Source: Fistulifera solaris (taxonomy: Eukaryota). Taken from it: a stretch of 64,000 nt of DNA. Both the position numbers and the translations under genes were made by a program. Location: positions 682,001 to 746,000 of the forward strand of contig AP026123.1 of the NCBI GenBank assembly GCA_030295235.1, in the 5' to 3' direction. Positions 21,851 to 46,357 of this stretch are shown here, in pieces. Below the pieces are notes generated by a model. It was not told the origin of the DNA and did not search any database. It saw nothing but the letters and a program-made list of their open reading frames with translations. The number at the start of each line of letters is the position of its first letter. The first letter of the stretch is position 1.

Positions 21851-22541
21851 GATTTGTATCCGATATAATCAATGAGTGTTTGAGACGTTATACTATCATG
21901 CAAAGACGCCTCTGCTCTCCAATTTGTTGTTGGCACTGTCAAGGCACTTCTTCGAAACATTCGTCTTTCCTTGATGTCATTTCGAAATGCTTTGTCAGCT
22001 TCAAAGAGTGAAGCGACCGGTACTGAAGGTGTTTCTTGCAAGCAATCGGGTCATTTTCGTTGAAGAGGTCAACGAAAATGGTGGCAAGGAAAAAAAAATT
22101 GTTTGAAAGTCGCACCGCCGCACTTCCATGAGTACTTAACAGGTGCTTCGACAGAATTCGCTTAAGTATTAGAGCCAACGGAATAAAGAACTTTTAAGTA
22201 TTCATGTGGACTATCCCTTGATCTGTCTCTCATCCCACTGGTACTGAATTTTGGAATGGGAAGTACAAATGACCCGAACCATGACTAATGTCACCTTGCG
22301 TTCCGCACTTTGCTTTGATAAGTGAATGTCTCACATTTTTCACGGGAAGTACAATAAGAGTCACACAAACCCTCGTGTCAGTACTGCTTTGAATGGCTTT
22401 GCAAGGATGGAGAAAGCTCCCCTCACCAAGACCTCATTCCTTGGTTTGACGATGATGGTGAATGAAACAATCCATTTCCTGTGAAGTCAAACATCAAACA
22501 ATACAATCTTACTTCAAGCCGACAACTTAAATTCTTTCGCC

Positions 22542-33335: not shown

Positions 33336-36300
33336 ATGTCGGTAACCAATAGTAACGAAAGCTATTGCACATTTACGCTTCCTTCAGATGTGGCGGCAGG
33401 CGGCTTGCCATCGCAGGAAGAAATTGCGAAAGATTTGGAATCCAATGATACGGAGGTACGTTGCACGGCTTTGTTGTCGTTTATGTTCCTTTTTCGAACG
33501 ACATTGTGCAAGAACTAGTTATTCATCGTCTACCTTTAAAAAAGAGATTAGTAGAATTAGGCGGGTAGTTTTGGTTCATTTCAAACAAACATGTCTTGCG
33601 GTGTTATTTGCAATACTAACTCACTCGGGCTCACAACGCACAGGTCAAGAAGCTTGCGCTGAAGGCCGCTATTATGGCGATGCTAGGCGGTGAAGCAATG
33701 CCGAGAATCTTGATGCAAGTCATCCGATTTTGCATCAATAGTAGTGACAAGCAACTAAAGAAACTTTGCATGTTGTACTGGGAAGTTGTCCCCAAGTATC
33801 AAGAGCCAACATCGGAAGAGTTACTTGCTGCTCTTTCCGGTGGACCTCCTGCTCCTAGAAAAATGCTACCAGAAATGCTTCTTGTCTGCAACGCCCTCAT
33901 GAATGATCTCAATCATCCCAACGAGTACGTCCGTGGTAGTATGTTGCGTTTTCTTTGCAAGGTGAAAGATGAGGAGATTTTGGGTCCTTTGATCCCTTCG
34001 ATCAAGGCATGCTTGGAACACCGTCACCCCTACGTGCGCAAGAATGCGGCACTCGCTGTATTCCATGCTCACAAGCTTCACGGTGAGGCGCTCCTTCCGG
34101 ACGCTGCGGAAATCATGGCGGCTTTCATTCAGGCAGAAACGGACTTGGCCGCTCGTCGAAACGCTTTCCTCATGCTTTTCAACGAATACGAAGACCTTGC
34201 GATTGAATTCTTGGCCAGGAACATGGATAACGTCAGTCAGTATGGCGATGGGTTTGCTTTACTGGTCTTGGAATTGACTCGTCGTGTGTGCCGACGTGAC
34301 CCGATGCAAAAGTCTCGGTTTGTGAGGGTTCTGTTCGTCATGTTGTCCTCCACTTCGTCGGCGGTATCGTATGAGGCTGCATGGACTTTGGTATCGTTGT
34401 CGTCGGCTCCGACGGCAGTACGGGCGGCGGCATTGACGTACGTCAATCTTCTGAACGGACAGAACGACAACAACGTCAAATTGATTGTCTTGGAACGCTT
34501 GGAAGGACTCAAGAAGAAGCACTCCAAAATATTGCAAGAGCTTCTTATGGATATTCTCCGGGCGCTCAGTAGTCCTAATATTGACATTTGCAAGAAGGTG
34601 TTGGATATTGCCATGGACGCTGTTACGATCCGCAACGTACAAGACGTTGTCACGGTACTGAAACGTGAAGTTACGAAGACCATGGAAGACTCCGACACTG
34701 ACGGAAAGGGATCGGTGTACCGTAACCTTCTTATCCGCTCCATCCATGGTTGTGCTGCTCGATTCCCTCAGGTTGCGGAAAGCGTAGTGCACACTTTGAT
34801 GGATTTTTTGAGTACTGATTCGGGGATGCAAGTTGTTATTTTTGTCCGTGCCATCGTTGAGCACTATCCCGATTTGCGCGTTCCACTTCTCACAAAGCTC
34901 TTGGGATCATTAGAGGATGTACAGTCGAACCAGGTGCTCTGTGTTTGTCTCTGGATCTTGGGTGAATACAGCGAGACAGTGGAAGGCATTGTCGAAGCAT
35001 TTGACACCATCTCGGAACAAGCTGGAACTCCACCCTTTGTCTCGCAAGCCAAGGACAAGGATGAGGATGTCAAAGCATCTGAGCCAAAGATGATTACGAA
35101 GAATGTGGTCTTGGCGGATGGTACATACGCGACACAGACGATCTACAGCGAGGCGAAGGCCCCCGCTTTGAGCGATTCCACACCTGCGCTTCGTCGAATG
35201 CTTGTTAATGGTGATGTTTTTCTCGGAGAAATTTTGGCATCGTCCTTGACCAAGCTTTGCTTACGAGCTGAGGATATGCCTGAATTCGACGCAATTAAGT
35301 TGAAGAAGATGACCGCCGAAGCGGTTCTCATGATGTGTGGTGTAGTCAAAATGGCCGAGCTTACTGTCACAGCTCAACGCTCGAGCCTCAATGACTGCCA
35401 AGAGCGTATTACAGTGTGCTGTCGTGCTTTATTAGATCCAAAGGCAAAAAATCTGCTCAAGAAACCTTTGTTGACGGATGGGCGAAAACGATTTGCGGAA
35501 TTCCTCAAAATCTTGAAAGACAAAGAAGCGAGTGAAGCTAAGTCAAAGAAAATGAAAGAAAGTGAAGAAGTAATGACTCAGGCCGACGATCTTATTCACT
35601 TCCGTCAGCTACGAAGTATGGCCGTTCAAGGAGGCGATGTTGATTTGGATGATGGTGCTGATTTGGCCCGGGCGACTGGTTACGATAGCGCTGACTCGCT
35701 CTTGACTTCAGAGTTGAACCACGTTTACCAGTTGAGCGGTTTTGCTGATCCTGTTTACTGCGAAGCATTGGTGACTGTTCATGACTACGACATTGTTCTG
35801 GAAATTCTTGTAGTGAACCGCACGGCAAGTACCCTTTCTAATCTCACCGTGGAACTGGCGACGATGGGCGATATGAAAATTGTGGAACGCCCTCAATCTC
35901 AATCGATTGGGCCCATGGACCAGATCAACATTCGCGCTTCAATTAAAGTCAGTTCTACAGAAACGGGTCACATCTTTGGTACAATTGTTTACGACGATGC
36001 AGCTACGCAAACGAAGTGCTACATCAATCTCAACGACATTCACATGGATATTATGGACTACATTCGACCTGCCACCTGCTCAGACGAAGCGTTCCGCTCC
36101 ATGTGGGCTGAATTTGAATGGGAGAACAAGGTCGCTATTTCCACTTCGATCACTTCCCTTTTGGACTTTTTTGAACCACATTGTCACGTCGACGAATATG
36201 CGTTGCCTTACGCCACACGATAAAACGGAGAAAGGTAGCTTTTTGGCGGCCAACTTGTATGCAAAGAGGTGAGTTTCCCAGTGTTTCTGAACCCCGGATT

Positions 36301-39144: not shown

Positions 39145-40510
39145 CTAGATCAGGTATAGTTCGAAGTGGTCCATAACTTCAATCCACGCCAGTAGAGTTG
39201 GCAGCATAAGGATAGTACCCATGGTAACGTTCGCAGCCAGACTAGCTTCGCCAATGTCGAACTGCTTGCCAAGAGAAAATGCCGCAAGTGAAATCGGTAG
39301 GGCGGCCACCAGCACCGCGCTTCGAGCGTACGTATTGGGCAAGTCATAAACATCCACCAATCCGACCATTAACAACGGAATCAAGACGAGCTTCACGAGC
39401 ATCGAACCAGCGAGTTCTAGCCAGCTAATAGAAATCAAGTCTTTTCCTTGCTGATGCATCCAGACACCCATCGAAAAGAGTGATAGAGGAGATACCATAT
39501 CTCCCAACCAGTTGAGTAAAGCGACAAACCATTCGAGACCCTCGACATAGTTTGTATTCGGTTCCTTCTCGTCGTTTAGAGGACGAAGATAAGTCTTTCC
39601 AAATGTGGAAAGCGATATGATGAACCCGATGCAAATTCCCCATAGAACAGGATTTCGAAGGACGCGTCCTGTAACCTGAGCTAGGATATCACGACGAGAT
39701 ACCAGCTCGAGCCAAAGCGCAAGTCGGCTTTTTGGCGTCTCGAACTTTGAATCGGACTCCAATTTGATTTCGGCGTGTTCTTCTTCGAGATGTGTATCTT
39801 CATCGACTTTGTTGATTTCATGTGGTTCAGTGGATTCCTTCTCCGCCGTTGGTGCCTCTTCGTCCGTAACTTCAGGCGAGAGCATCTGACGCTCCAAAAC
39901 TGAAGCTTCTAAGAAAAATAGCTGCAGCGGCAGCTGGAATAGAAAGCTTGAAATACCAGCCATGAGACCAAAAATACAGCCATGGCCGGATCCGGCAGGA
40001 TTGCGGTCAAAATCGGAACTGAGAGACGGTGAGCACAGTCGTCAACAAAGATGCAGCAAGTCATCGAGGCACTTACTTCCGTGAACGATGGTGGATATCC
40101 ATGAAAAATTGAGAAATTGAACCGCCACATCACCGAGGCCTTTGCGTTCGCGGAATACAGCAATCACTAAGAAGAAGCTCAATAGCAAGCTTGCTACCCG
40201 TATCAACAAGAACACTTTAATGAAGTCCCAGACAAAAGCATCGGAGTAGAAGTCTATGCCAACTCCGATACCATTTATCACGAGAGAAGGCAGCGCCACC
40301 CAAAAGACGAATTTGGTGGCATCAACGACGAAGGTGTTGTCAAAGACACCAATCCATGACGAAAGGGCACCCAAAACGACTGTCCCCACAATCTTTCGTC
40401 AGCAAGCGAGCAAAACAATTGAGTGGCAAGGCATGGTAAAGTTACATAACAACTATCTCATGACGTACCTGGATGCCAACGTTAACAACAGAAATGTATT
40501 TGTAAACCAT
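39145..40510 (-). CDS. AEC family (auxin efflux carrier / PIN-PILS-like) membrane transporter, multi-exon
   Basis: KFVFWVALPSLV, central acidic loop, RNPVLWG, SPLSLFSMG, AALPISLAAF and NVTMGTILMLP; TM bundles on both sides of the loop. Confidence 0.82.
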
Positions 40511-41076
40511 GATGGGTTCTTGATTTTTGATTTTATGAGACGTCAACCCATCATTTTTTTTGTGCGTGCAAAAATGAGGAACCGATTCGCGTTTCAGTCG
40601 GGTCGTAGCATTTGTACCAGCAACCTACGTACGGTAAGGAACAAGTATAGCGTTCTCTTGACATCGGTGTCAATAAAAAACAAAAAACCGTAAAAAAGTG
40701 ATGATTCTGTTCTCATTGCATCAATCACGTCAATCACATCTTTCTTTCATAAATAACGCGGATATGTAACATTTCAGTGCCTGCGTTATAAGCCCCTCGA
40801 TCGGAACACGGAAGGCGACATGCATTCATTGTTCCGCAAGTGATGTCATCGTTCGAATGCGAACTCGGCAATCACAGGACATATCATCATTATACTCGAG
40901 GACCGAGGACTCTCTTTATTTACGGAGCACGAATCGAAAATCGAATAATTGAATCCTGTCATTACCTTGAACCGACTCTCCAAGCGAAACCGAACACAAC
41001 CGATAATAGCAGCAAACGCCTCCCACACTCGTCACAAACAATTCAAAATATATTTCGACAAGAAACACCAGCAACC

Positions 41077-42573
41077 ATGAAATCTCTTTTAATAACGGTC
41101 CTGTTGGCCTTCATTTCTCGAGCACTTCCCTTTTCTATTCCTTCGAGAAGGATTCAGACGGCACTCAAGTCAACCACGGCCGAGAATCCGATGGAAACTA
41201 CCGAAAAGATGACGCCCGAAGCGATCGAGTTCCAAAATCGTTTGGCCGACAAGAAAGACGCGCTGTTCATTGCTCAAACTGCACCATCGGTACGAGTCGC
41301 ACTTCCGGAAGAATTCGGTCTGGAGCCAGGTAGGTCGATCGTGTTTCGTCGAGCAAGAGATTATGAAGCAACAATTAATTGTCTCACCGCTAAAAATGCG
41401 AACAGGTTCGCTTCCTTCCGGTATTATGGTATCGGCTTTGAAAGAACTTGGCTTCGACAAAGTCATAGACACCAATACCATGGCCGATTTAACCATTTGC
41501 GAAGAGGCCACGGAACTGTTAAACCGTGTTCTTCTTCGCATCGAACGCAACGGCCAAAACGAAACGCAGTACCCACCGGAAAACGATGCACCACTTCCGC
41601 TTTTCACGTCCTGTTGTCCCGGTTGGATGTTTGGATTACAGAAAATGGCTCCGGATCTAGCACCTTATGTATCCAGCTGTAAGTCTCCTCACATGATGTT
41701 AGGCGCGTTGGTGAAGGAATACAGCAAAGAATGGTATGGTCGCGATGATCCAAGGGATATTTATCTTGGTAAGCAAAAACATAGTCGGACATGTGTGTTG
41801 TCGAATTCTTCATTGAAGTCTCACTCGCGCTCTCGTCACAAAAGTTTCGATTATGCCATGTGTCAAAAAAAAGGCCGGAGAGCGACGAAAAAGTATTCCA
41901 GCATGGAGACGTTCGCGACATCGACAATGTACTGACGACCCGAGATGTCGGACAACTTGTCCGGATGCGCAACATTGATCCGACCAACCTGGAACCGAAA
42001 GAGTTCGACTCCATGTTTCAGTCGGAAGAAGATATGAACAGTCTCGGATCGGGTGCTGGGCAACTGTTTGGCACAACGGGCGGTGTCATGGAAGCGGCGG
42101 TCCGAACTGTATACGCGTGGCTGACTGGAAAACAACTACCTCGTCTAGAACTGACCGAGGTCCGTGGGCTCGAAGCGGTGAAGGAAGCGACCGTGTCTCT
42201 GCTTGACAAGGAGACCGGTAAGGGACTGGACGCCGAGATACGCGTTGCCGTTGTCAATGGATTGGGTAATGCCAAGAAGCTGATCCAAGCGTTGAAGAAT
42301 GGCGAAGTGCAATATGACTTTATCGAAGTCATGGCTTGTCTTGGCGGTTGCATAGGTGGCGGCGGACAACCACGATCAAAAGACAAAGATATTCTGCAGC
42401 GACGCCAAGAAGTCATTTATAAGCTCGACCGCAAACTTCCAATTCGCCAGTCGCACGAGAACCCCACGGTAAAGCATCTCTATGAAAAGTATCTCGGAGA
42501 GATTGGTGGCGAAAAAGCTCATCACCTACTTCACGTCAAGCCTATTTACGGCGGTGGTGACGAGAAGCCATGA
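41077..42573 (+). CDS. hydA: [FeFe]-hydrogenase, H-domain-only, with bipartite plastid-like leader; introns 41330..41405 and 41769..41844, frameshift in A run ~41870
   Basis: TAPSVRV, ADLTICEE, FTSCCPGW, SSCKSPHMM, IMPCVKKRPE, GGVMEAA, EVMACLGGCIGGGGQP and SHENP...AHHLLH. Confidence 0.92.
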
Positions 42574-42633
42574 AAGGGATCACAGTGAAACACTTGTATT
42601 CTTCATAAGGACTATAAATGAAAGCACTCGACT

Positions 42634-43545
42634 TCATCTGTATCGCCTTTGCATCCGTTTTTGTAGGAAAAGTACGCGTGCGCCTCCACCACTCTCCAAT
42701 ATACTTCGTTCGTAGTTAGTTCGGCATGATGCTCGCAAATAGGAATCCGGAGCCAAGGGAATTCCGTCCGACGTTCGCAAAGGCCATTCGAGATCGGAGA
42801 GTTGTATGGGACGCAAACCTCGCGATTGGGCGACTGACAAAAATCCATTTATTTCTCCCTGTACACTAAAACCAGGATGCCCCAGACTGAGATAGAGGAT
42901 AATACCCGTGTTGGGCTTAACGAGACTCGCCATGGCGTCCGCCAACAACGGCCAACTCCCCGGATTGTATGTTAAATCGGAACCGATCACCCAATCCGCT
43001 GATTCTTCAGGAATCGGATCAGTATCATAGCCCCATTGATACGATACAGCCTTAACTACATTCTGCAAATTGTTGCGTTGTATATTTCGCTCCGCCAACT
43101 GTATAACATTGAGGTTCCCATCCGTAGCAAAGACGCGCTTAGCTCCCTGTGTGGCCGCTACTAAACTGGCCAATCCGGTTCCGCATCCCAACTCCACTAC
43201 AGTGGCGTCTCGAAAGGAAAGCAATGGCAAGAGTCGCGTTAAAAGAAGGCTGGAATTCCATACTGCGAGTCCGGTAGCTCCCGGTCCCGAAGCTTGTTGT
43301 TCGATGGACAGAAGGGTCGAGTCGTCGACGGCAATGGTTCGGATGGGCAACGTCATGCAAACATTTTCGTACGCTCCCGGAATGGCACGTTCTTCTGTCA
43401 AAAGGCCATTTTCTTGACACAAAGAGGTGTCATCATTGGTCGATACAATCAATGTGGTTGTAGCAGCCGGCGATTCAAAGAGAAATTGTCGACGACTCGC
43501 CATCAGGCACAGCATCGTCATTTCGACGAATGCCGGAAATAACAT
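42634..43545 (-). CDS. Methyltransf_16 (METTL21-like) lysine methyltransferase
   Basis: TGLAVWNSSLLL, VVELGCGTGLAS, ATDG and IGSDLTY motifs. Confidence 0.85.
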   Translation of the reverse strand: MLFPAFVEMTMLCLMASRRQFLFESPAATTTLIVSTNDDTSLCQENGLLTEERAIPGAYENVCMTLPIRTIAVDDSTLLSIEQQASGPGATGLAVWNSSLLLTRLLPLLSFRDATVVELGCGTGLASLVAATQGAKRVFATDGNLNVIQLAERNIQRNNLQNVVKAVSYQWGYDTDPIPEESADWVIGSDLTYNPGSWPLLADAMASLVKPNTGIILYLSLGHPGFSVQGEINGFLSVAQSRGLRPIQLSDLEWPLRTSDGIPLAPDSYLRASCRTNYERSILESGGGARVLFLQKRMQRRYR

Positions 43546-44152
43546 GTGCACCTTCCTATTGAAGCACGGTCTATTGGTTGAATAAGTACACAACAAACAA
43601 ATCTGTTCGATGCAAGGAATAATGTTTTTGCAATCGACGAAGGAGCAACGCAACCATTTTTCGCTTTAACGCAGTCACAGCATTTCAGAATCTCCGTCTG
43701 CCTAAAGACAATGACAATCTCCTGTACTATAGTTGAAAGTGTGGTCTCATTTTCTTCACGACTGCACTTCAGTCATGAATCGTTTTTCTTTCGAGCTACC
43801 TAGACCTACAATTTCGTCTTCCGTCAAATTTGATGCAAAGAACTTTGGTGCGTCTCTGTGTTATATGAAATGGTAAAGAAATAATAAACTCGTACGACTT
43901 TGGATTAATGTCCATTCAACATGGATGCTTGGCTCATTTTCATTGCGATCACGGCATTGCAGACTTTCCGTCTGCCTCGAAATGCTGGCTCGGATTTTCT
44001 CTTTCAGCGTTCATTCAGCAAAGATACTTCAGACAGAATTTCCGCTTGCTTTATTTATAAAGGCCCGATAAATCAAGCATTTTTGATTACTGCTCTGCTA
44101 TTCTCGAAAGAACAAAACAAGGTAAGAGAGACACAACTCTTCTGCAAATGAA

Positions 44153-46357
44153 ATGAAGCACGTCGCTCTTTTCGTATTACTCATCGTAGTCAATGAGAAA
44201 ATTAAGCAATGTCAACCTTTCGCACCTTTCTTGCCAGCCAAAAGAGCATTGATGACGATACGGCGGAATCAATTCTTAGAAGCCGCACCGGAGACGACTT
44301 CGTCCTTGCACAATGCCAGTATAAATACGAATACAACAAAGAATGACATCATGTGGGAACCTTCGCAAAAATACGTTCAAGAAACACTCATGTACAAATT
44401 CAAGAAACACGTCAATATTCAGGGCGAAGGCTACGAAGAATTGTGGAAATGGTCGATCGAGCACAGCGATGAATTCTGGTCGACTTTGATGGACTTTTTG
44501 AATCTGCAGTACTCCGGATCAAAAATTCCTGTAAAAGAAGGAACGATTTTGCCGGATGTTGAGTATTTTCCGAATGTAAGAGTCAATTTTGCGGAAAATT
44601 TACTGAAACACGGTCATCCCAAGTCACCACTCGCACAATCCGAGGCTTTGGTATCTGTCTCGGAAGCCCGACCGGATATCCGATGGACGTTTGCTCGCTT
44701 ACGGGAAGATGCCAGTCGTGTGCAAAGTGCGCTTGCCAAAATGGGTATTACGGAACATGATGCAGTAGCTGCTTATTTGCCGAACATTGGGGAAACCATC
44801 CTGGCTATGTTGGGAACGACCAGCATCGGAGCCCTGTGGACTTCCACTTCGCCCGATTTCGGCGTACCTGCTGTCGTGGATCGCTTTTCGCAAGTTCTAC
44901 CGAAAGTTTTGTTCACTGCGAACGGCTATGTATCGAAAGGAGAACGCATCTCCATGTTGAACAAAATAGAAGACTTGATGGAGGCGTTACCTTCCATTCA
45001 ACGAGTTGTGATGATCCATCTGCTTGATGAAGAAAGAGAAGAATGGGCGTCAAACTCAAAACTAGCTAGCTCAACAGTGAGTTGGGAGAGCTTTCTCGAG
45101 GAAGGGTCTTGTGATGATGGAAGTGCTCCGGAAAACTATTTTACCCGACTAGCCTTTTCGCATCCGCAATTTGTTCTTTATTCTTCGGGAACGACCGGAT
45201 TGCCGAAAAGTATTGTCCACGGAGCTGGCAATACGCTTTTGCAGCACGCGAAAGAACTCATGTTGCATTCGGATTTGCGACCAAACGACCGGATGTTGTT
45301 CTTTACAACCTGTGGATGGATGATGTGGAATTGGATGATTTCCTCGCTCTACGCCGGCGCCACAGTCGTTTGTTGGGACGGTTTTGCTGCATATCCTCGC
45401 TTATCATCGCCATGGGATTTGGTCGAACGAGAAAAGATTACGCATTTGGGTACTACACCGCGTTATTTGCAAGCTTGTCGCGCTCGTGTCCGCCCGCATC
45501 GTGACAATGATTTATCCAAACTTCGTGTGATCCTTTCAACTGGCTCACCTCTCGCTCCACAAGATTTTGATTATGTTTATAACTATGTACACAAAGACGT
45601 TCTTTTGGCATCCATCTCCGGCGGTACGGATATTTGCTCCTGCTTTGCTCTCGGAAATCCTCTTTGCCAGTGCGAAAAAATGAATTGCAAGCAATCGGGC
45701 TGGGTCTCGATGTTTGTGCTTATGACAGTGACAACCGACAATCGGTTGTGGGCATCAAAGCTGAATTAGTGTGCAAGGCTCCTTTCATCGCAGCTCCTGT
45801 TGGCTTTTTTTGGTGACGATGATCAGAAAAGCAAGTACCGATCGGCCTATTTCCTAGATGAACCAGGAGTCTGGTTTCATGGTGATATGGTAGAAGTCAC
45901 CGGTTCTGTCGGGAAAGCGGGTGGGATGATCATATACGGCCGTTCCGATGCAACGTTAAATCCGGGTGGTGTTCGTATCGGCACATCCGAGGTATACCGT
46001 TTTGTTGAGTCCGTGGAGGCAGTGGTGGATTCGTTGGTCATTGGGGACGTGATAAAGTCCGGCAAGAGGGCCGGAGATGTCCGAGTTGTTTTATTTGTCA
46101 AACTCGAGGATGATCTGGCGCTAACACCCGCAATAGAAGAGAAGATTCGAACCACTGTTCGCACCGGAGCTTCAGAGGCGCATGTTCCTGCTGTTATCCA
46201 ACAGGTGCAGAAGATTCCTTACACCAAATCAGGCAAGAAGATTGAAATCGCAGTGCGCAACTTGTTTGCTGACGGGACTTTACCCAATAATTTGGGCGCG
46301 CTTCTAGATCCTAGTGCCTTTGACGAGTACCTAAGATTGGCGGAAGCGGGTCTGTAA
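44153..46357 (+). CDS. AACS: Acetoacetyl-CoA synthetase with signal peptide/F-motif leader; frameshifts ~45660 and ~45805
   Basis: NFAENLL, YSSGTTGLPKSIVHG, FTTCGWMMWNW, SISGGTDICSCF and GRSDATLNPGGVRIGTSE. Confidence 0.9.

Follow-up and report, generated by a model that had tools for sequence, protein, structure and literature searches.

In a 2014 paper, [FeFe]-hydrogenases that consist of the H-domain alone are described as restricted to chlorophycean algae (PMC3897525); Chlamydomonas reinhardtii HydA1 (P0113 in our collection; e.g. 3lx4_A) has this form. Nuclear [FeFe]-hydrogenase genes are also on record for heterokonts. The Nannochloropsis enzyme keeps its F-cluster domains (PMC3897525), and the diatom Thalassiosira pseudonana, with relatives in Cyclotella and Skeletonema, has a nuclear HYDA (B8CGB6_THAPS) reported as kin of C. 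reinhardtii HYDA1 (PMC10407231). The same study, dating from 2023, finds diatom HYDA only in 'Coscinodiscophyceae' and groups it with Proteobacteria at bootstrap 100 (PMC10407231). Here we analyse a hydA gene on a 64-kb stretch of Fistulifera solaris DNA (assembly GCA_030295235.1, contig AP026123.1, positions 682,001 to 746,000 of the forward strand; hereafter the window, numbered from its first base). An original prediction, made from the bare sequence, had seen in this gene a short, apparently plastid-targeted [FeFe]-hydrogenase of a diatom-like genome.

The gene lies at 41077-42573 on the plus strand and, when a run of eight A is read as seven, comprises three exons and two introns that encode an H-domain-only [FeFe]-hydrogenase of 447 residues. 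We consider it very likely that this is an intact gene of the HydA family, and we have good though not complete confidence that it is a three-exon nuclear diatom gene in which an H-domain-only HydA follows signal- and transit-peptide-like stretches. Taken as a whole, the best explanation, and in our view a probable one, is that the product is a group-A [FeFe]-hydrogenase made of the H-domain alone, that is, of the same M1 architecture as Chlamydomonas HydA1.

Gene structure and conserved motifs

Logan contigs of four public runs were aligned to window positions 40900-42700, and individual contigs are cited below by run (X) and record number. The gene has the following features.

41077..41329 (+): exon 1; ATG at 41077; opens MKSLLITVLLAFISRALPFSIPSRR, with a hydrophobic stretch at residues ~1-17, and ends in the H-domain start ..IAQTAPSVRVALPEEFGLEP
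41330..41405 (+): intron 1; 76 nt, GT..AG, phase 1; supported by its splice sites and by the skip in contig X3 record 19
41406..41768 (+): exon 2; L1 motif TSCCPGW at 41606-41626; PF02906 match
41769..41844 (+): intron 2; 76 nt, GT..AG, phase 1; supported by its splice sites and by the skip in X3 record 19
41845..42573 (+): exon 3; L2 (41853-41880), GGVMEAA, L3 and a small-subunit-like C-terminal domain; stop codon TGA at 42571-42573
41853-41861 (+): MPC (within VSIMPC), the start of L2 in exon 3
41865..41872 (+): run of eight A that breaks the hydA frame in the window; seven A gives VSIMPCVKKRPESDEK, which fits MPCxxKxxE
42079-42099 (+): GGVMEAA, in exon 3
42325-42372 (+): L3 motif EVMACLGGCIGGGGQP, in exon 3
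42340..42342 (+): Leu codon CTT at the usually-Pro position of L3

All three H-cluster motifs and GGVMEAA, on which the original prediction had built its case, were confirmed. L1 (TSCCPxW) appears as TSCCPGW, including the proton-transfer Cys and a [4Fe-4S]H ligand; L2 (MPCxxKxxE) appears as MPCVKKRPE in the seven-A reading, which contigs of public runs back; and L3, given as ExMxCxxGCxxG in the published L1-L3 set (PMC5506873), appears as EVMACLGGCIGG. None of the Cys ligands has been lost, nor have the proton-transfer Cys and the L2 residues Lys and Glu. The prediction had also drawn attention to MACLGGC in place of the usual MACPGGC. The Leu itself is real, since two contigs spanning its codon, X3 record 21 (42250-42392) and X6 record 23 (42318-42564), have 0 differing letters; its weight, however, was overstated, as the published motif has an x at this residue. 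Of 100 other rows in a 102-row alignment, 94 have Pro in this column, 4 Asn, 1 Leu (a Clostridium metagenome-assembled genome (MAG), L049) and 1 Arg, and P0005, the closest protein in our collection, has Ile there.

Pfam family PF02906 matches both exon 2 (103.4 bits, E 2e-29) and exon 3 (94.9 bits, E 7.9e-27; cut-off 22.1), and PF02256 matches the C-terminal part of exon 3 (74.9 bits, E 5.3e-21; cut-off 24). The same scan assigned no family to exon 1 and found no Fer4-type or ferredoxin-like domain in hydA, in agreement with the predicted lack of an N-terminal FeS F-domain; the two open reading frames (ORFs) directly upstream (40045-40398 and 40250-40690) gave no family match either. A second in-frame ATG lies upstream of 41077 in the same open frame. 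Nevertheless, 41077 is the likely start codon, judging from the second hydA version described below, whose 5' region shows a gap or replacement of 95 nt (40940 to 41036), and from P0005, which begins at the same Met.

The two spliceosomal introns have stood up as well, on the strength of their GT..AG sites and of a spliced contig. This contig, X3 record 19 (758 nt), derives from the second copy and shows 55 differing positions and one gap over three aligned pieces. At intron 1 it skips 76 nt, and a cut shifted by 3 yields GT..AG. At intron 2 the skip covers 41769-41846 and leaves two letters in between, which corresponds to an intron of 76 nt followed by an altered first codon of exon 3.

Integrity of the reading frame

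As given in the window, the spliced coding sequence (CDS) has 1345 nt and runs into a stop after 249 codons, a frameshift that is due to the A8 run at 41865-41872. With eight A the spacing of L2 becomes MPCVKKKAGE, and after VSIMPCVKKK the stop is reached, the remaining protein being found one base further on. With seven A the CDS has 1344 nt, i.e. 447 codons and a stop. All three contigs that cover 41865-41872 have one A fewer at 41865, two of them from X1 (depth 27.7/27.7) and one from X3 (462.8/462.8), and there is no eight-A contig among them. X1 record 6, which spans 314 nt (41722-42036) and takes in intron 2, differs from the window by this single A and by nothing else. Moreover, P0005 (446 aa) is intact and reads VKKRPESDEK; it is identical to the window protein at 387 of 448 alignment columns, and the two N-termini are collinear.

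The verification of the A run near 41870 that the original prediction had called for therefore comes out in favour of seven A in every covering contig (contigs, not reads), and its proviso that the gene would be a pseudogene if the frameshift were real finds no support in contigs of the same organism, which carry 7 A. Judging by these contigs, the eighth A most likely arose as an error of assembly, or is a rare allele at the very most, so for annotation the A8 run of the assembly should be A7. Runs of A or T at least 8 bases long occur seven times in the window, at 22090 (9 bases), 29601, 37882, 37902, 40554, 41865 and 54947.

Second copy, expression and constraint

In the runs from the same organism, hydA is present in two versions of similar depth, one equal to the window and the other differing at ~6-9% of bases (for example, at 22 of 268 and 17 of 196 bases in aligned pieces). 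The two may be diverged haplotypes, homeologues or paralogues. Forty of the 140 single-base differences of the second copy were listed, and 31 of these fall in synonymous codons against 9 in non-synonymous ones. For the part of the gene beyond the A run the corresponding counts are 12 synonymous and 6 changed codons; this synonymous excess 3' of the run indicates that the downstream frame is coding and constrained. In other words, hydA is under purifying selection. Conservation was tested on the 98 columns of the 102-row alignment whose conservation across the other 100 rows is 90% or higher. Three of these columns are changed in the window protein (Leu to Val at 240, Gly to Ser at 271 and Pro to Leu at 371), against a median of 2 for all rows.

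The gene is also present in RNA-derived contigs, and in spliced form. Next to the spliced contig of the second copy, X3 contains pieces identical to the window's own exons (records 17, 20 and 21), and record 23 of X6, a freshwater metatranscriptome, matches the window over 247 nt with 0 differences. Pieces with 0-1 differences from the window (40900-41231 and 42318-42700) were found in X6 and in X2, a wetland metagenome, and it follows that the organism or very close kin lives in such waters. X2 also has more diverged hydA variants, with 13-34 differences per piece.

Relationship to known hydrogenases

Exon 3 alone matches 45 distinct solved sequences, the best of which (E ~1e-62) are Fe-hydrogenase chains that include the C. 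reinhardtii enzyme P0113, and this agrees with the prediction of a true HydA-type gene. Over its whole length, the window protein has the same residue as P0113 in 193 of 388 aligned columns (50%). Bacterial enzymes of the M3 (CpI) type share the H-domain and the motifs, exon 3 matching 'Iron hydrogenase 1' chains at E ~8e-38, but they have 570-590 residues, carry N-terminal ferredoxin-like domains and fall on the opposite side of the tree described below; the window protein has neither these domains nor this length. The group-A model TIGR02512 cannot decide the assignment because its cut-off of 405.95 bits, a bacterial one, is missed by the proven H-domain-only C. reinhardtii enzyme itself (371.2), as it is by the C. 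moewusii (389.1) and Amphora (347.7) controls. P0005, taken as proxy, scores 346.4 bits; its match covers model positions 77-374 of 375, and the low score may be due in part to the lack of the first 76. A search of the ESM Atlas returned only generic hydrogenase clusters and no taxonomic information.

Searches with exon 3 and with P0005 retrieved ~45 to 80 cluster representatives that are 48-66% identical and rank above the green-algal enzymes, nearly all of them from metagenomes, metatranscriptomes or Logan assemblies. Named diatom relatives are Amphora coffeaeformis (P0033, P0290) and Attheya sp. (P0286), all H-domain only and 53-58% identical. P0033 is placed in the clade by the tree, P0290 and P0286 by score and identity.

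A quick IQ-TREE tree was built of 102 rows, comprising the window protein, 80 of 120 rows of the exon-3 search and 21 of 80 bacterial loci; 38 synthetic constructs and two rows longer than 800 aa were left out, and it holds no Nar1/NARF rows. Branch support is given as values of the SH-like approximate likelihood-ratio test (SH-aLRT). The window protein and P0005 group together (SH-aLRT 100) within a 44-row clade that holds P0033 (99), itself nested in a 49-row clade (99). P0033 has Pro in L3 where the window protein has Leu, and the latter sits with P0005 on a long branch of its own. A further split (99) separates 74 H-domain-only algal rows from 28 rows, namely the 21 bacterial loci and seven F-domain proteins, among them Tetradesmus P0121 and the Bacillota MAG P0078. 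In this tree, whose root and hence the direction of any transfer are not fixed, the clade is joined to green-algal HydA, C. reinhardtii HydA1 among them, rather than to any of the bacteria sampled. In the phylogeny that the original prediction had asked for, albeit one without Nar1/NARF rows, the window protein accordingly falls with green-algal H-domain-only HydA. The prediction had called this form typical of chlorophycean green algae; members of the same clade as the window protein occur in public transcriptomes of Amphora and Attheya.

In a scan of one genome per prokaryote species (GTDB), the closest loci are 36-47% identical, which argues against a recent bacterial donor among the sampled species; the scan names no donor. 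A metagenome scan with the clade alignment kept 80 loci, all of them unspliced, bacterial-like and 41-48% identical, and yielded no neighbourhood of a diatom relative. Neither B8CGB6_THAPS nor any Thalassiosira-named row was among the 120 best rows per search or in the 20 clusters opened. The T. pseudonana HYDA is reported to group with Proteobacteria, whereas the clade described here joins green algae; B8CGB6_THAPS is not among the rows of our tree.

The likeness to C. reinhardtii HydA1 extends to the H-domain-only form, the three motifs, the small-subunit-like C-terminus and the placement on the same side of the 74|28 split. On the other hand, the window protein is without the long chlorophycean insertion that HydA1 has between the GGVMEAA and NGLGNAKK regions, and has Leu rather than Pro in L3. 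Its host plastid is secondary, and its leader resembles a signal peptide followed by a transit peptide, whereas that of HydA1 is a simple transit peptide. Activity and maturases are proven for Chlamydomonas; the window gene is known from sequence alone.

Two groups of rows deserve mention for their N-termini. Five rows, P0043-P0046 and P0051, stand basally in the 49-row clade; their leaders are rich in Ala and Arg and lack a signal peptide, and some of these rows lie on contigs of up to 2.3 Mb. Such leaders look like transit peptides of the green-algal type, which would agree with the diatom clade having come from green algae. In P0016 and P0023, from NCBI/JGI records, the first residue already falls within the ..ESF.. 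junction of the leader, and their labels read 'NADH-quinone oxidoreductase subunit G' or HndD. Both have the look of diatom genes to which bacterial gene-calling rules were applied, and such gene calls might be relevant to the report that T. pseudonana HYDA groups with 'Proteobacteria'.

Predicted plastid targeting

The leader of the window protein reaches a Kyte-Doolittle 10-mer maximum of 3.23 at residues 4-13 and continues as SRA|LP|F. Plausible cleavage sites are SRA|L and LP|F, which would leave Leu17 or Phe19 at +1; stromal import is predicted by the ASAFind criterion when Phe, Trp, Tyr or Leu occupies this position. Exon 1 then encodes a Ser/Thr/Arg-rich, transit-peptide-like stretch starting LPF/FSIP, with ~25 residues rich in Ser, Thr and Arg between the hydrophobic stretch and the conserved mature start. 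We applied a crude leader rule (a Kyte-Doolittle 10-mer of at least 1.9, then [ASGCT][FWY] within 20 residues) to the clade, and 37 of 50 rows passed, the pass of P0040 (an incomplete row) being spurious. The failures are mostly N-terminally short gene calls, such as P0016 and P0023. Typical junctions in the clade are ..NVSA|FTIS, ..TSA|FTVS, ..SDC|FVVS and ..ADG|FSVQ, and in Amphora P0290 (..LLLTGEVEC|FTPL) a classical signal peptide leads into Cys|Phe. Plastid targeting thus has good in silico backing but remains a prediction, and the location that we hold to be likely is the plastid stroma.

Genomic context

The window has 46% G+C, contains no N and carries genes of eukaryotic type, including those for an XPB helicase, coatomer beta, Brix, UCH, adenylate kinase, LSM and an ELO elongase. 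A JGI record matches coatomer beta at 100%, and the named relatives of this protein among the 120 best rows are all diatoms with 71-78% identity (Entomoneis 78%, Epithemia 77%, Attheya 76%, Fragilaria 74%, Cyclotella/Thalassiosira/Skeletonema 71-73%); among these named rows it is nearest to raphid pennates. The genes flanking hydA are diatom genes, and the diatom-like genome of the original prediction is thereby confirmed.

Two neighbouring genes have irregular frames of their own. At 44126-46354 (+), 1.5 kb downstream of hydA, lies an acetyl-CoA-synthetase-like gene (ACAS_N, AMP-binding, AMP-binding_C) whose two ORFs are parted by a single in-frame stop (45767-45769). Enumeration of GT..AG pairs gave many candidates, and the stop probably lies in an in-frame intron. 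In coatomer beta (33620-36269, +), the C-terminal platform domain is spread over two frames near 36220, and the first ORF has 867 aa vs ~970 aa in diatom orthologues. Here the same enumeration gave too many candidates, and the frame change could be an intron or another assembly slip.

Alternative explanations

Points that weigh against our reading of the gene arise at several of its steps, and each has to be considered together with the alternative that it would favour. The A run was judged on contigs, in which rare variants are lost, and not on raw reads, and X1 may be part of the data from which the window was assembled. Were the frameshift real in the sequenced strain, the window copy would be a young pseudogene and only the second copy would work. 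This would take the eight A of the window and the early stop at face value, and the runs are small; we nevertheless find it very improbable, given the otherwise perfect match of X1 record 6, the lack of an eight-A contig, the pieces identical to exon 3 of the window in X3 and in the metatranscriptome X6 (records 20, 21 and 23), and a window protein with no surplus of changes at conserved columns. In the tree, the window protein and P0005 share a long stem (0.53). That the gene is a bacterial or green-algal contaminant, or encodes a cytosolic protein of the Nar1/IOP1 type, can practically be dismissed. The supposed confinement of the H-domain-only form to chlorophycean algae would suit such an origin, and metagenome annotators do label clade members NuoG or HndD; however, hydA has two spliceosomal introns backed by a spliced contig and is embedded among diatom genes within a single stretch of 64 kb, no prokaryote locus of the scan exceeds 47% identity, the green-algal rows have 43-51% over the whole protein, and the full L1-L3 motifs occur together with the small-subunit domain. 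As to the address of the protein, Phe19 is preceded by Pro, an atypical residue for position -1 of a signal-peptidase site, the window protein passes the leader rule solely via an Ala-Phe inside the hydrophobic stretch, and P0005 fails its small-residue-then-aromatic part. A real and active protein might then reside in the endoplasmic reticulum (ER) or secretory path, in the periplastidial compartment or in another organelle. We judge this to be distinctly unlikely, as Phe (or Leu, if the cut follows SRA) and ~25 Ser/Thr/Arg-rich residues come after the hydrophobic stretch, and most full-length clade members have textbook junctions of a small residue and Phe. Moreover, no ER-lumen partner is known for an O2-sensitive, ferredoxin-dependent enzyme.

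The remaining points concern activity, for which HydA requires HydE, HydF and HydG. Of the 154 ORFs of at least 95 aa in the window, 88 were scanned; apart from three pieces of hydA itself, which had a scan of their own, these comprise 85 ORFs, and none of the 85 gave a radical-SAM, HydF-type GTPase or PFOR family. The other 66 had been dropped by eye, most of them overlapping a longer ORF in another frame or strand. In a HydG search (model TIGR03955), none of the 150 best representatives has a diatom-type leader, the five that pass the rule being spurious, but this search is weak, with one representative per 50% cluster ranked against a bacterial query. Those that have a eukaryotic name, among the 10 clusters opened, come from a metamonad, Anaeramoeba and Volvox. 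The hydA gene of Nannochloropsis, on the other hand, is flanked by hydE/F/G, and H2 was obtained there only with methyl viologen (PMC3499364); the window hydA differs in having neither an F-domain nor a maturase gene within 64 kb. For T. pseudonana, two papers report HYDA but no maturases, HYDEF and HYDG not having been found (PMC10407231; PMC8003979), and H2 at a background level of ~5 pmol per min per microgram chlorophyll under oxic and anoxic conditions alike (PMC10407231). These observations favour a protein that is made and conserved but does not evolve H2 in vivo, the diatoms of the clade lacking HydE/F/G. Such a protein would either contain a [4Fe-4S] cluster only and serve another redox role, or be matured by a novel route. 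We think this unlikely but regard it as the most serious of the alternatives. It has to contend with the retention of all Cys ligands, the proton-transfer Cys and the L2 Lys and Glu, with only three differences at 98 conserved columns and with the mostly synonymous differences of the second copy; in an apo-protein with a different role, one would expect residues needed for the [2Fe] site alone to be lost. In addition, the T. pseudonana protein is not among the rows of the tree, so its case may not transfer.

Proposed role and significance

By analogy with the green-algal enzymes, the H-domain-only HydA of the window would work as follows. The precursor would enter the ER-derived outer membrane system of the plastid via its signal peptide, and Phe or Leu after the cleavage site would allow passage to the stroma. 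There the [4Fe-4S] part of the H-cluster might come from the plastid SUF system and the [2Fe] part from HydE/F/G. Under anoxia, the enzyme would oxidise reduced ferredoxin, supplied by photosystem I or by dark pyruvate oxidation, and release H2, thereby acting as an electron valve. That H2 evolution can be measured in vivo is a genuine, if tentative, possibility.

Of the idea of a HydA in a secondary red plastid, the diatom host is confirmed and the plastid location predicted; its novelty was overstated, the T. pseudonana HydA being already in print (PMC10407231; PMC8003979). A literature search returned no paper describing the present diatom HydA clade, and its Amphora member is already in UniRef under a generic name. 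In the published surveys, diatom HydA figures as a curiosity of T. pseudonana and its close kin, possibly of bacterial origin (PMC10407231; PMC8003979). Our results suggest that the window gene and its clade extend diatom HydA beyond the published set, to Amphora and Attheya, and point to green-algal kinship. They add an H-domain-only HydA, both conserved and expressed, from a diatom that by its coatomer beta lies closest, among named rows, to raphid pennates. The clade counts at least 44 cluster representatives, most of them with predicted plastid leaders of the diatom type. It is tempting to go further and to postulate a diatom-wide clade of plastid-addressed, H-domain-only HydA that is under purifying selection, of green-algal origin and without HydE/F/G. 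As a whole, this proposal is improbable; if true, it would mean either a novel route of H-cluster assembly or a conserved non-hydrogenase role of the HydA scaffold.

The main point of interest is whether such diatoms have maturases at all. If these are truly absent, the conservation of HydA is a puzzle. Bourke et al. (2017), as cited in PMC8443593, are reported to have ascribed H2 release in anoxic sediments to benthic diatoms. If the enzyme described here is active, it would be a candidate source of that H2.

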